Below the pieces are notes generated by a model. It was given only the letters and a program-made list of their open reading frames with translations. It was not told the origin of the DNA and did not search any database. A stretch of DNA of 64,000 nucleotides from Candidatus Poseidoniales archaeon (GTDB taxonomy: Archaea; Thermoplasmatota; Poseidoniia; MGIII; CG-Epi1), in NCBI GenBank assembly GCA_045567955.1, contig JBJLBX010000013.1, positions 2,226 to 66,225 on the forward strand. Reading direction: 5' to 3'. The position numbers were made by a program, and so were the translations under genes. Of this stretch, positions 55,944 through 59,869 are shown piece after piece (positions within the stretch are counted from its first letter, which is position 1; each line of letters starts with the position of its first letter).

Positions 55944-57992
55944 ATGATACCCGTATTTCCTATAGTTTCATTTGCTTTAATTCTTTTATTTGGAATGTAT
56001 GATCCAAGAAGAGGTGGATATTTTGCTTTAGTTGGTGTTGGTCTTTCTTCAGTATTTTCTATAGCTGTTGTTTATGAGGTTCTAATTCTGGATTCATTAC
56101 ATGGTGGTTTTATTGAATCTACTCGGACATGGTTTGGTGGAGAAACATATTCTTTTGAGTTTGGTACATACATCGACAGTTTGGCTGCAATTTTATTATT
56201 GGTTGTTGGATTTGTTTCATATTTAGTAGTTTTATTTTCTACAAGTTACATGAATGAAGATGGTGATCGGCAAATTAGGTATTTTTCAGAAATTTGTTTG
56301 TTCGTAGGTGTAATGCTTGGTTTAGTTATTGCTAATTCTTTCTTATTGATGTTTATTTTCTGGGAGTTAGTTGGTGTTTGTTCTTATTTATTAATTGGAT
56401 TTTGGTATGAAAAACCATCTGCAGCTTCAGCAGCTAAGAAAGCATTTTTGGTAACACGTGTAGGAGATGTTTTCCTTTTATTAGGTTTAATCATCCTTTT
56501 CAATACTTTTGGTACACTTAGATATTCTGAATTATTCAATGACCCTGAACTATTGGCTGCTAATGCTACTGAAGTGAAATGGGCTACACTTTGTTTATTT
56601 GGTGGTGCTGTAGGTAAATCAGCTCAGTTTCCCTTGCATGTCTGGCTTCCTGATGCTATGGAAGGGCCAACTACAGTTTCAGCCTTGATTCATGCTGCAA
56701 CTATGGTCAAAGCAGGCGTTTTCTTAGTTGCTAGGGCTTATCCATTGATTGTTCACAGTCCTGATACGGCAATCTACATTGCAGTTACAGGTGGTGTGAC
56801 TGCATTCATTGCAGCGAGTATGGCAATGGTTATGAATGATATCAAACGAGTTTTAGCTTATTCAACAATTTCACAACTTGGTTATATGTTTTTGGCGCTT
56901 GGAACTGGGGCCTGGGCATTTTGGCATGCAACTGAAGAAGGTTTAGACATTCATGTCCAAGGATATACTGCAGGTTTATTCCATTTGATGAATCATGCTT
57001 TCTTCAAAGCTTTACTTTTCCTTGGTTCAGGTGCAGTTATACATTCAGTACATACTCAAGATATGAGAGAAATGGGTGGGTTGAGAAAATCTATGCCTGT
57101 TACTTCTTTGACAATGGGTCTTGGAGTATTATCTATTGCAGGTGTTCCTTTCTTCTCAGGTTTTTGGTCTAAAGATGAGATTTTAGAAGCAGTTCACCAT
57201 AATGGAGAAGCTGAAGGTATCTTTGGAGCACTCTGGTGGCTTGCTCTGTTGACAGCTGCAATGACTGCATTTTACATGACAAGGCTTTGGATGATGACAT
57301 TTAGTGGACCAGAAAAAAGGACAATTAGTGAGATGGAGCCATCTAAAGACCATGAAGAAACAGGTAACTGGGAATTATCTAAAAAGGACGTTAAAATACA
57401 TGCGCATGAAGCTCCATTAGTAATGACAATACCTCTTATGCTTTTAGCTTTTATGGCCGTATTTTCAGGATTTTTATTATTCATTGGTGATGGGTTTGGT
57501 TCAAGAATTTATTTTGGCCACCACGATAGCACTGAAGGTGTTATTCAGTGGGGAATTATTGATCATATTCTTTCGTCATCACTTACTTATTTATCAGTAG
57601 TTGTAGGCCTTACTGGAGTAATATTAGGATATTTATTTTACAAACGTAGTAGTAATGGTGAAACTATACTTTCAACATCTTCTATTTCAGAAAATATTGT
57701 TTTTGGTCCACTACATACTTTTCTTTCTAACAGATTGTATATGTCTAAATTATTTGATTGGTTTGGAATGAGAACTTGGGATACTTTTGCAAAAGCCTGT
57801 GACTGGTTTGATAGAAACATTATTGACGGTATGGTAAATGGGACGGCATACATTACTCAAATTTTTAGTAGCAGAATTAGAAAGTTAAACTCTGGTTTTA
57901 CAGGTCATTATGCTTCTTTGACAGTTGGTGGTCTTGGTGCTATAGTGCTGCTTACTAGAGTTATAATGCCAATAATGGGGTGGTCAATTTGA
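55944..57992 (+). CDS. nuoL: complex I subunit NuoL
   Basis: 682 aa. FIFWELVGVCSYLLIGFWY and WLPDAMEGPTTVSALIHAATMVKAGVF motifs, with a long C-terminal extension (lateral helix region). Confidence 0.9.
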   Translation: MIPVFPIVSFALILLFGMYDPRRGGYFALVGVGLSSVFSIAVVYEVLILDSLHGGFIESTRTWFGGETYSFEFGTYIDSLAAILLLVVGFVSYLVVLFSTSYMNEDGDRQIRYFSEICLFVGVMLGLVIANSFLLMFIFWELVGVCSYLLIGFWYEKPSAASAAKKAFLVTRVGDVFLLLGLIILFNTFGTLRYSELFNDPELLAANATEVKWATLCLFGGAVGKSAQFPLHVWLPDAMEGPTTVSALIHAATMVKAGVFLVARAYPLIVHSPDTAIYIAVTGGVTAFIAASMAMVMNDIKRVLAYSTISQLGYMFLALGTGAWAFWHATEEGLDIHVQGYTAGLFHLMNHAFFKALLFLGSGAVIHSVHTQDMREMGGLRKSMPVTSLTMGLGVLSIAGVPFFSGFWSKDEILEAVHHNGEAEGIFGALWWLALLTAAMTAFYMTRLWMMTFSGPEKRTISEMEPSKDHEETGNWELSKKDVKIHAHEAPLVMTIPLMLLAFMAVFSGFLLFIGDGFGSRIYFGHHDSTEGVIQWGIIDHILSSSLTYLSVVVGLTGVILGYLFYKRSSNGETILSTSSISENIVFGPLHTFLSNRLYMSKLFDWFGMRTWDTFAKACDWFDRNIIDGMVNGTAYITQIFSSRIRKLNSGFTGHYASLTVGGLGAIVLLTRVIMPIMGWSI

Positions 57993-58354
57993 ATAAGTTT
58001 TTGGGAATTTTTGCTTTAGTAGGATTATTTATCTTATTTTCAGGTAGTGCTAATGCTGAAAATCATACAGTAATTGTCACTCAGGCTGATGATTTTTCTT
58101 CTTATTACTTTGAACCTAATGTTTTAGAAATAGAAGTTGGTGATAATGTACTATTTGTCTGGGGTAATGGCTCTCATAATGTGGCGCAAGTTTCAGATTC
58201 AGACTCTAATGATTATAATCTTGGTTTCTATTCAGGAGCTTCACAAGAAGGAGGTAATTGGTCGCTTCCATCTGAGTTCACTTCACAGGATGGAACTTTG
58301 TATTATGTTTGTGAACCTCATGCTACAATGAATATGCGTGGTTCAATAATAGTG
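57980..58354 (+). other. signal peptide-like segment + plastocyanin/halocyanin-like blue-copper domain
   Basis: [22 protein letters not shown], then a beta-rich ~100 aa with His ([11 protein letters not shown]) and the C-x2-H-x4-M ligand set ([10 protein letters not shown]). Confidence 0.75.
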
Positions 58355-59869
58355 GGTTCTGGATCATTACCGCTTCCTGAGATTTCTATGGAGTTTAGTG
58401 ATTTTCCTTGGTTATCATATCTTTTAGTATTTCCTCTCATTGGAGCTCTTTGGTCCATTAGCTTTAGTAACACACCTAACGCACCTCGATTGATTGCTTT
58501 ATTCACTACTTTGTTTACTTTAGTTATATCTATAATTGTTTTCATGAAAACGGGGTCAAAATCAGGTTATAGTTTGATGGAAGAATATGAATGGGCACCA
58601 AATTTAGGTATATCATTATTATTTGGTGTGGACGGTTTGAGTTCTCCACTGATCTTATTGACGGGAATAATAGGTCCTTTAACCGTTATTTTTGCATGGG
58701 AAGAAAAAGAAAAGCCAGGTCTTTTCTTTAGTTTACTTTTAGTTATGCAAACTGCACTTTATGGTGTATTTGTCACACTTGATTATTTTGTCTTTTATGT
58801 ATTTTGGGAAATTGTTTTGATACCTATGTTTTTCCTAATTGCAATATGGGGTGGAGAGAATAGAAGATACGCTTCAATTAAATTTTTCATTTATACTTTT
58901 ACAGCTTCAGTAATTATGCTAGTAGGTTTTATGGCTCTATATTTTGAATCTGGAGCTAATTCTTTTTCAATGATTGACATTGCGAATAGCAACAGAGAAT
59001 TTACAGAAGATTTCCAGATTTGGGTTTTTGCTGCATTGTTTATAGGTTTTGCAGTTAAGATACCTTCATTTCCATGGCACACTTGGCTGCCAGATGCACA
59101 TGTTCAAGCTCCAACAGCAGGATCTATTTTATTGGCTGGTGTGATGCTTAAAATGGGACTTTATGGACTTATTAGAGCAGCATTACCTGCATTACCTTTG
59201 GGAGCTATTTATTTTGTCCCAATTATGGTGATTTTAGCAGTTATTTCTATTCTTTACGGTGCAGCTTTAAGTTTAGGGCAAACTGATTTGAAAAAGTTGG
59301 TAGCTTATTCTAGTGTTTCTCATATGGGGGTTGCATTACTTGGTGTTGCTACAATGACGGAGTTAGGTTTGGCTGGTGCCGTATTCATGATGTTTGCTCA
59401 TGGAATTTTGAGTCCTGCAATGTTTATGATTGCTGGAGTTTTACTCCATCAAGTAGGAACAAGAGAAATTCCTAAATTAGGTGGATTAGCAAGACATCAA
59501 CCAAGAACTACGGGTATTTTTGTTGTAATTTTTATGGGAAGTCTTGGCTTACCAGGAATGGCGGTTTTTGTAGCTGAATTAGCTGTATTCATAGCTTTCT
59601 TTCAATCTCATGGTTACTGGCTTTTATTGCCTATTTTTGGTATGGTTTTAACAGCAGGTTATCATCTTTGGGCATTGCAGAGAGCAATTTTTGGAAAAGA
59701 CAGTGAAGAAATAGAAATAGGTAAGGTTCATGAGGCTCCATGGTATGAATTCTATCCTATGTTTACAATAATAATAATTGCAGCATTATTCGGTATCTTT
59801 CCACATTATTTGATGGATCCGATTAATACTGCCTGCTATGATATTTTGAATTTTATGGGAGTACTCTAA
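57980..59869 (+). CDS. nuoM: cupredoxin (type-1 copper) domain fused to complex I subunit NuoM
   Basis: A continuous 629-aa ORF: signal-like N-terminus, a cupredoxin ligand pattern (GSHNV ... [14 protein letters not shown]), then a full NuoM ([42 protein letters not shown]). Confidence 0.85.
   Translation: [629 protein letters not shown]

Follow-up and report, generated by a model that had tools for sequence, protein, structure and literature searches.

Complex I is among the best-studied membrane enzymes. Its solved antiporter-like subunits are free of cofactors, with NuoM beginning at the first transmembrane helix (TM1). Why, then, should the nuoM gene of a marine archaeon open with the coding sequence of a blue-copper protein? 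The question is raised by a stretch of 64,000 nucleotides (hereafter, the window) from Candidatus Poseidoniales archaeon (Marine Group III, CG-Epi1; assembly GCA_045567955.1, contig JBJLBX010000013.1, positions 2,226 to 66,225 of the forward strand). Here a single open reading frame (ORF) in the nuoM slot of a complex I operon encodes in succession a signal peptide, a cupredoxin domain, a short linker and NuoM. An earlier note, made from the letters of this DNA without database searches, had drawn attention to the ORF, and the 629 residues and the peptides quoted there are all present in the translation of 57980–59869. A copper centre on NuoM is unexpected because all solved antiporter-like subunits are cofactor-free, and yet, as described below, it is kept across an order of abundant ocean archaea. 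The coordinates of the parts are collected in Table 1.

Architecture of the fusion protein

The N-terminal part of the protein was compared with family profiles, with sequences of known structures and with predicted structures. The Pfam profile PF00127 (Copper-bind) matches residues 42–125 with 34.5 bits, and the score rises to 38.5 bits when the N-terminal 147 residues are searched alone (cutoff 21.2 for both). In a phmmer search against the sequences of the PDB, residues 26–132 align end to end with the cyanobacterial plastocyanins 1bxu and 1j5c, and His66, Cys111, His114 and Met119 coincide with the four copper ligands of these proteins. Asn67, which directly follows His66, matches the His37-Asn38 pair of plastocyanin, so that the His-Asn pair is kept as well. 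The codons of the ligands in the loop lie at 58310–58312 (Cys111, tgt), 58319–58321 (His114, cat) and 58334–58336 (Met119, atg). An AlphaFold model of residues 1–200 gives the domain a predicted local distance difference test score (pLDDT) of 90–95, and Foldseek matches it to plastocyanin, pseudoazurin and a cupredoxin of Nitrosopumilus maritimus with probability 1.0 and TM-scores of 0.6–0.8. The type-1 copper ligand set that the earlier note had read from the sequence is thus borne out by both the profile and the predicted beta-sandwich, and sequence and model together identify the NuoM-borne domain as a genuine type-1-copper cupredoxin of the PF00127 family.

The likeness to plastocyanin, amicyanin and halocyanin that had been proposed holds at the level of this family and is narrower below it. 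The nearest named NCBIfam subfamily is halocyanin (TIGR03102), where the domain reaches 44.6 bits against a cutoff of 93.8. The scores for plastocyanin (TIGR02656, 29.0 bits against 87.85) and pseudoazurin (TIGR02375, 33.1 bits against 109.85) are likewise below their cutoffs. The domain thus stands outside these named subfamilies, with halocyanin, and not amicyanin or plastocyanin proper, as its nearest. Across 99 full-length sequences the four ligands are invariant together with Asn67, Tyr109, Pro113 and Gly121, at pairwise domain identities as low as 36%. A complete ligand set and ligand loop that do not vary over such a distance are therefore regarded as a sign of a working redox centre.

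Several features place the copper domain on the outer face of the membrane. The N-terminus has the character of a Sec-type signal peptide, with a helix at residues 3–19 in the structure models and with small residues at -3/-1 followed by E-[DN]-H in most orthologues. The segment between the signal peptide and TM1 contains one Lys or Arg versus 17 Asp or Glu. In the model, TM1 (residues 144–161) and TM2 (168–191) are followed by a beta-hairpin (197–217) to which residues 137–139 add a strand. In complex I and in Mrp, the beta-hairpins of the antiporter-like subunits are located at the periplasmic face (PMC7419157). A hairpin after TM2 on this face means that TM1 begins outside, and the copper domain would therefore be extracytoplasmic whether the signal peptide is cleaved or not. 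As judged from sequence and model, then, the signal peptide exports the cupredoxin of about 100 residues to the outer face, where it faces outward, and the linker leads into a TM1 that runs from outside to inside. This is the orientation that the earlier note had expected. The short linker that it described is a constant property of the family: measured from the last strand to the Trp of the FPW motif, the tether has 17 residues in 62 orthologues and 13 in 36 (n = 98). A tether of 13–17 residues therefore holds the cupredoxin within a few nanometres of NuoM.

The remainder of the protein appears, from its sequence and model, to be an entirely canonical NuoM. The NCBIfam profile TIGR01972 (NDH_I_M) covers residues 145–623 with 501.7 bits (cutoff 263.8), and PF00361 (Proton_antipo_M) matches residues 268–558 with 241 bits. 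From about residue 140 the protein aligns with NdhD1 and Escherichia coli NuoM beginning at residue 2–4 of these subunits, and no part of NuoM is therefore missing; the claim of an in-frame fusion to a complete NuoM is sound. The full-length model (pLDDT 88.7, predicted TM-score (pTM) 0.78) matches NuoM, NdhD and ND4 chains in Foldseek with TM-scores of 0.91–0.95 and root-mean-square deviations of 1.6–2.1 Å. Glu277, Lys360, Lys391 and Glu533 are invariant in the ortholog alignment, and we take them to be the Glu of TM5, the Lys of TM7, the Lys of TM8 and the Glu of TM12 that correspond to E144, K234, K265 and E407 of E. coli NuoM. Fold, conserved Glu and Lys residues and operon position are thus shared with canonical NuoM, ND4 and NdhD; the difference lies ahead of TM1, where the canonical subunits have no extracytoplasmic domain. 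The solved NuoM homologues, of 440–540 residues, all begin at this helix, and none has an N-terminal extracytoplasmic domain or a cofactor, as the earlier note had said of the canonical subunit.

The gene lies between nuoL and nuoN within the complex I operon, and the same order of nuo genes is found in relatives. The ORF starts with GTG, and an alternative TTG at 57989 would still retain the signal peptide. Its 5' end overlaps the nuoL stop (57992) by 13 nucleotides, and nuoN begins at 59869.

Table 1. Positions in the window of the fusion gene, the parts of its product and the surrounding operon (aa, amino acids; TM, transmembrane)
Feature	Position	Strand	Remarks
Complex I operon nuoA-B-C-D-H-I-J1-J2-K-L-M-N	49791..61362	+	described as 11-subunit, without nuoEFG
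Fusion gene, nuoM slot	57980..59869	+	629 aa and stop; signal peptide, cupredoxin, linker, NuoM
Predicted Sec-type signal peptide, aa 1-26	57980..58057	+	hydrophobic core, then a cleavage-type site before EN
Cupredoxin (type-1 blue copper) domain, aa 27-126	58058..58357	+	predicted eight-stranded beta-sandwich, acidic (pI ~4)
His66, predicted copper ligand 1, codon cat, GSHNVAQV motif	58175..58177	+	in 99/99 sequences
Predicted ligand loop Cys111-x2-His114-x4-Met119 (CEPHATMNM)	58310..58336	+	Cys, His and Met in 99/99 sequences
Linker, aa 127-143, contains Met137 (58388-58390)	58358..58408	+	model pLDDT about 71-73
Complete NuoM (ND4/NdhD) moiety, aa 137-629	58388..59866	+	predicted 14-TM antiporter-like fold

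Distribution and origin of the fusion

A joining of two unrelated domains in one assembled contig could conceivably arise from a missed stop codon, a frameshift or a chimeric assembly. When one genome for each GTDB species was scanned, 36 loci came up, and in 31 of these an uninterrupted ORF of 620–638 residues combines the Cys-x2-His-x4-Met loop with the WLPDAH motif of NuoM. The record titles of the 31 are those of Marine Group III euryarchaeote or Candidatus Poseidoniia metagenome-assembled genomes or single-cell assemblies, with two labelled Thalassarchaeaceae. At least 67 more clusters of full-length fusions, at 63–98% identity, are present in the protein database, some of them with hundreds of members. 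An intact ORF in 31 other loci and in 67 clusters therefore excludes a sequencing or assembly artefact in the window, the chance of which we put at practically nil, and the survey of fused versus separate genes that the earlier note had proposed comes out for fusion.

Some database entries do show the two parts separately (loci and proteins are cited by our L and P numbers). On the JGI contig L001 (10001–11043) a frameshift cuts the fusion protein P0005 at 244 residues. The NCBI record P0084 (Marine Group III CG-Epi2, BET99_04165) begins NuoM at the equivalent of Met137, a residue conserved in the motif MEFxDFPW, and lists a 'hypothetical protein' of 493 residues. One short contig, L044, carries a 'free' copy after nuoL. 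We considered its product, P0149, as an evolutionary intermediate in which an unfused, self-anchored cupredoxin directly follows nuoL, and rejected it. The contig (ENA ERZ23487500 scaffold, 1463 bp) passes from nuoL and the 5' half of a nuoM-type cupredoxin to the 3' part of a paralogue of about 1200 residues, and the join falls at YYVCEPHAG, a stretch common to both; the anchor and the downstream gene go with this paralogue, which is present on 18 contigs. L044 is thus probably an assembly chimera, as its sequence suggests; in the protein library P0149 nonetheless represents a 50% cluster. A further relative, L033, was set aside as a candidate for a locus without cupredoxin, the region being a masked run of N and uninformative. 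Public records thereby expose an annotation gap, in that they say just 'NuoM', which is the JGI label for the fused clusters, or begin the protein at the internal Met.

In a neighbour-joining tree built from the NuoM moieties, without support values, the fused proteins group together as one clade. Its sister is a single lineage, represented by P0102, and next come unfused NuoMs at about 60% identity; no cupredoxin gene is present in the nuoL–nuoM spacer of this unfused sister clade. The median ratio of nonsynonymous to synonymous substitution rates (dN/dS) is 0.20 for the cupredoxin domain and 0.06 for NuoM; with the invariant ligands, the former value points to selection on the domain as a copper site. 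In a profile search among 1.84 billion representatives, all fused proteins came under one 50%-identity representative, a full-length fusion of 627 residues (P0089), next to fragment clusters, all with Marine Group III-like scores, and none of the ten other long N-terminal-cupredoxin matches scanned is fused to a respiratory subunit. Taken together, the sequence comparisons indicate that the fusion arose once, long ago, and has been kept throughout Marine Group III.

The giant multi-cupredoxin proteins that top the representative search were discarded, as they are bacterial and owe their high scores to repeats only. One of these, P0143 (L046 10001–21013), comprises 3670 residues with 12 tandem cupredoxin domains and PKD domains and comes from a 6.2-Mb genome. 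Its gene lies directly upstream of CusA/CusB-type copper efflux genes, and proteins with the tail of the type IX secretion system (Por_Secre_tail) are encoded nearby.

The closest free relatives of the domain are proteins of 157–175 residues that consist of a signal peptide, a cupredoxin, a linker of about 20 residues, a C-terminal helix and a basic tail, the C-terminal anchor being often PGF-CTERM-like. They share with the NuoM domain the order of parts and the signature HNVAQV ... GF.SG ... W.LP ... TLYY[VI]CEPH....M.G.I.VG. They end, however, after one anchor helix, whereas the corresponding helix of the window protein is TM1 of a 14-helix pump subunit. A Marine Group III protein with the layout FAS1-cupredoxin-PGF-CTERM (OIR23291.1) has the same signature and part order. 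The layout of the free relatives therefore suggests that the first helix of NuoM stands in for the anchor of a halocyanin-like carrier. We infer that the gene of a tail-anchored blue-copper carrier was fused once to nuoM, at the base of Marine Group III, and that the carrier's own anchor helix was thereby replaced by TM1. Met137 would then probably be the ancestral start of NuoM. Among the free homologues whose neighbourhoods were inspected, a Kariarchaeota locus (L035) and a short contig (L045) have no respiratory context, and the homologue P0022 is located on a eukaryote-like contig.

The sister lineage carries an ectodomain of a different kind. P0102 (L038 1153–3174; GCA_964586125.1, 65% G+C) is a NuoM of 673 residues with 69% identity, in which a 'choice-of-anchor V' domain takes the N-terminal place of the cupredoxin; it matches NF041895 with 79 bits and has the motif GCNCHG. 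We found a single such cluster. A homologue search with the P0102 ectodomain returned nothing useful, and no relative of it was found in the PDB.

Possible role of the tethered copper centre

Electron carriers built into respiratory enzymes are known from bacteria, as in the cytochrome c on subunit II of caa3 oxidases and the dihaem QcrC of actinobacterial III2IV2 supercomplexes. NirK also occurs with a cupredoxin extension (PMC11237513). These proteins resemble the window protein in that a soluble one-electron carrier has been built into a membrane or redox enzyme by gene fusion; they differ in that the enzyme to which the carrier is joined is itself the donor or acceptor, and in that the carrier is, save in NirK, haem rather than copper. 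Among archaea, blue-copper proteins are well established in the role that cytochrome c has elsewhere. The halocyanin of Natronomonas pharaonis donates to the terminal oxidase, and by analogy the NuoM domain would be a similar archaeal type-1 copper domain, held at the outer face of the membrane as a substitute for cytochrome c toward the oxidase (PMC3062577). Halocyanin has its own lipid anchor, however, and the window domain scores below the halocyanin cutoff. In Halobacterium, halocyanin is fused to CbaD (OE_4073R) and hence likewise to a membrane subunit of a respiratory complex (PMC8305020), but there the carrier is joined to the oxidase that uses it, whereas the host here is NuoM, which has no known redox business with a carrier. 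In the SoxM supercomplex of Sulfolobus acidocaldarius, sulfocyanin (SoxE) is an integral, anchored and non-diffusing blue copper relay between a bc1-analogous module and a haem-copper oxidase (PMC3062577); unlike the NuoM domain, it is a polypeptide by itself, anchored by a helix of its own, and the assembly that holds it is of the complex III/IV type and contains no complex I subunit. As a single type-1 copper domain that is predicted to be exported and held on a short tether at the outer membrane face, the NuoM domain would belong with carriers of the halocyanin and sulfocyanin type. It lacks the dedicated anchor of its own (lipid, single helix or PGF-CTERM), and is anchored by TM1 of NuoM.

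The earlier note knew of no description of such a fusion, and we found none in the searchable literature, whose scope stops short of the 2017 paper by Haro-Moreno et al. on Marine Group III genomes. Fusion proteins of archaea were surveyed in 2024; NuoBC(D), CoxI-III and NirK-plastocyanin are listed there, but no carrier joined to a pump subunit of complex I. Nor is such a protein mentioned in a survey, from 2022, of the blue copper proteins of Thermoplasmatota or in the Marine Group II and III genome papers within the search scope. The fusion of a carrier to a respiratory enzyme is thus a known principle; the fusion to a complex I pump subunit appears to be new.

A possible acceptor of electrons is encoded in Marine Group III genomes. 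A degenerate DNA search for an anchor peptide led to 18 marine contigs (L047–L064). L058 has products that match OIR23291–OIR23295, from Marine Group III CG-Epi3, without a difference, and L060 likewise encodes proteins identical to those of CG-Epi6. In L058 and in a 365-kb contig (L065), two surface cupredoxin proteins stand in a cluster with CtaA-CtaB-CoxII-CoxI, followed downstream by CoxIV and a Sco1-type chaperone. CoxII carries the CuA motif CTEYCGNSHSMM, and CoxI matches TIGR02891 with 674 bits. From this cluster it follows that Marine Group III has a CuA-type terminal oxidase needing a one-electron donor. The cupredoxins beside the cox genes are 35–36% identical to the NuoM domain and belong to the same broad family. 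Marine Group II, the order that is sister to it, combines a Rieske protein and cytochrome b with an aa3-type oxidase and lacks cytochrome c1 (PMC6336850). Widespread deficiencies of haem biosynthesis have been reported in Marine Group III (bioRxiv 10.1101/2021.01.11.426183).

By analogy with the known carriers, a relay appears to be the most likely function of the NuoM-borne cupredoxin. In the specific form that we favour, and to which we give an even chance of being correct, TM1 of NuoM anchors a halocyanin-like copper domain that acts as a tethered one-electron relay toward the CuA oxidase, with its partners beside complex I. The copper centre would form a membrane-fixed relay in the last segment of the aerobic chain, taking electrons from a quinol-oxidising module or from other anchored cupredoxins and handing them toward the CuA site of an A-type haem-copper oxidase in place of cytochrome c. 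The tether would be too short for roaming, so that the partners would have to adjoin complex I in a stable or transient supercomplex. NuoM would keep working as a proton-pumping module, and no cofactor path would connect the copper site with the quinone site of complex I. The relay is made more plausible because the free homologues are membrane-anchored carriers and because the CuA oxidase operon is flanked by paralogous anchored cupredoxins.

Other observations count against a relay of this form. That the NuoM domain binds copper, is redox-active and touches an oxidase or a quinol oxidase is so far a prediction. To our knowledge there is no system in which complex I is the redox partner of such carriers. 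By its profile scores the domain falls outside all the named subfamilies tested (halocyanin, plastocyanin and pseudoazurin), and the 'choice-of-anchor V' domain at the same NuoM position in the sister lineage means that the site tolerates ectodomains other than cupredoxins. The cox cluster comes from epipelagic Marine Group III contigs and not from the window's own genome. No cox, Rieske or cytochrome b gene is present in the window or within 10 kb of any nuo locus, the scan for oxidase subunit I near these loci having used the motif GHPEVY, and no Rieske/cytochrome b module was seen in the Marine Group III sequences examined. We know of no cultured Marine Group III organism.

It is possible, if doubtful, that NuoM just replaces an anchor helix. 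The cupredoxin would then be an ordinary membrane-anchored copper carrier that meets its partners by collision, without supercomplex or coupling, and the fusion would provide co-expression and a fixed stoichiometry with complex I. The free homologues, which share the layout and have an anchor helix of their own, are consistent with this, as are the other anchored cupredoxins beside the Marine Group III oxidase genes and the presence, at the same NuoM position of a relative, of a domain kind defined by interchangeable anchors. Nevertheless, all sampled members of this deep clade keep the fusion, and their linkers have either 13 or 17 residues, which exceeds the constraint expected of a mere anchor; a purely collisional carrier would be handicapped by its tie to a very large, slowly diffusing complex. 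We consider unlikely an obligate respirasome of complex I, quinol oxidase and CuA oxidase in which the NuoM-fixed copper is a hard-wired relay and the ectodomains of NuoJ and CoxI (described below) are docking pieces. If true, complex I would here for the first time bear a redox cofactor on the outer side, and redox information might also be passed back to the antiporter module.

The domain might also have no part in electron transfer. It could brace or shield the outer face of the membrane arm together with the immunoglobulin (Ig)-like ectodomain of NuoJ, with copper only stabilising the fold, in the manner of the non-catalytic accessory subunits on the positive side (P-side) of mitochondrial and chloroplast complex I. 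A NuoJ ectodomain of about 190 residues is indeed encoded in the same operon, with weak fn3/Ig signals in a relative, and the short linker, its pLDDT of about 72 and the pTM of 0.78 for the full-length model accord with such packing. This is rendered improbable by the His-Cys-His-Met set and plastocyanin-type loop, which are absolute in 99 sequences with identity down to 36%, and by the unfused sister clade, which has the same split NuoJ and copes without a cupredoxin. Highly improbable in our view is a new form of coupling or regulation, in which the antiporter module of NuoM responds to the redox state of the copper, as a signal of the condition of the downstream chain or of an external donor, or in which extracellular donors feed the domain. 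The direct attachment to TM1 of a pumping subunit, the pairing of strand 137–139 with the beta-hairpin element that links antiporter-like subunits, and the large His/Asp-rich and fasciclin surface proteins of Marine Group III that end in cupredoxins could each be cited in its favour. It is without precedent, however; from the copper site to the proton channels no further conserved residues of a charged or redox kind occur, and the NuoM moiety is canonical throughout.

The tethered relay toward the CuA oxidase therefore remains the account that we prefer. The fusion offers a handle on electron transfer from quinol oxidation to the oxidase in archaea without cytochromes c and c1, and on whether prokaryotic complex I joins respirasome-like assemblies. 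It also extends the view of marine archaea as organisms whose respiration relies on copper and spares haem.

Further features of the complex I and oxidase loci

NuoJ of the window is split into two overlapping genes. The first (54447–54710, 87 residues) encodes TM1–3 of NuoJ, and the second (54694–55518, 274 residues) encodes one transmembrane helix, an extracytoplasmic insert of about 190 residues with two Ig/fn3-like repeats and the final NuoJ helix. Relatives within Marine Group III have the split too, as does the unfused sister clade (88 + 385 residues, with weak fn3/Ig matches). With the ectodomain of the split NuoJ and the cupredoxin of NuoM, the complex I of this lineage therefore has at least two outer-face decorations.

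Other subunits are extended as well. NuoI (53668–54444, 258 residues) contains an extra PorD-like 2x[4Fe-4S] domain at residues 166–239, and the NuoI of the unfused sister clade (L039 4005–6161, 718 residues) has a GltD-like insert (Fer4_20 + Pyr_redox_2). The extra module may be a built-in input for electrons from NAD(P)H or ferredoxin in a complex I that lacks NuoEFG. NuoH (52434–53666, 410 residues) has an N-terminal extension of about 60 residues ahead of the NADHdh profile, and the extension is even longer in L033 (431 residues) and in the sister clade (486 residues). A basic ORF of 86 residues (61359–61619), which has no family match, overlaps the end of nuoN. An ORF of equal size is found at the same place in L042 (13377–13637), and one of 105 residues follows nuoN in the unfused sister L039; the small ORF may be an unrecognised member of the operon.

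In the oxidase loci, the two large surface proteins (L058 8550–10496 and 10604–14221; also on L047–L064) end in a cupredoxin and a PGF-CTERM-type anchor. One of them, of 648 residues, has two fasciclin domains (OIR23291.1). The other, of about 1140–1440 residues (roughly 1200 in the L058 and L065 cluster), is extremely acidic, and its long His/Asp repeats (DHDDHGDH...) suggest metal binding. CoxI of Marine Group III (L058 83–2413, minus strand; L065 10701–13958) carries an N-terminal 'choice-of-anchor V' ectodomain (residues 37–184, motif GCSCHN) and an extra transmembrane helix, and in L065 it is further fused to CoxIII (1085 residues). Domains of this kind thus occur in two neighbouring lineages, on NuoM in the one and on CoxI in the other. 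The first gene of the window, of the MMPL family, was compared with the MMPL gene adjoining the Marine Group III cupredoxin cluster as possible synteny; the products are 25% identical and the genes were judged to be paralogues.

The window has a G+C content of about 35% and contains archaeal housekeeping genes for PCNA, the proteasome, TFIIB, the thermosome, aIF2-gamma and deoxyhypusine synthase. An ORF of 800 residues on the minus strand (15782–18184) has as its sole family match the GreA/GreB C-terminal domain, at residues 733–789, which is unusual for an archaeal genome.

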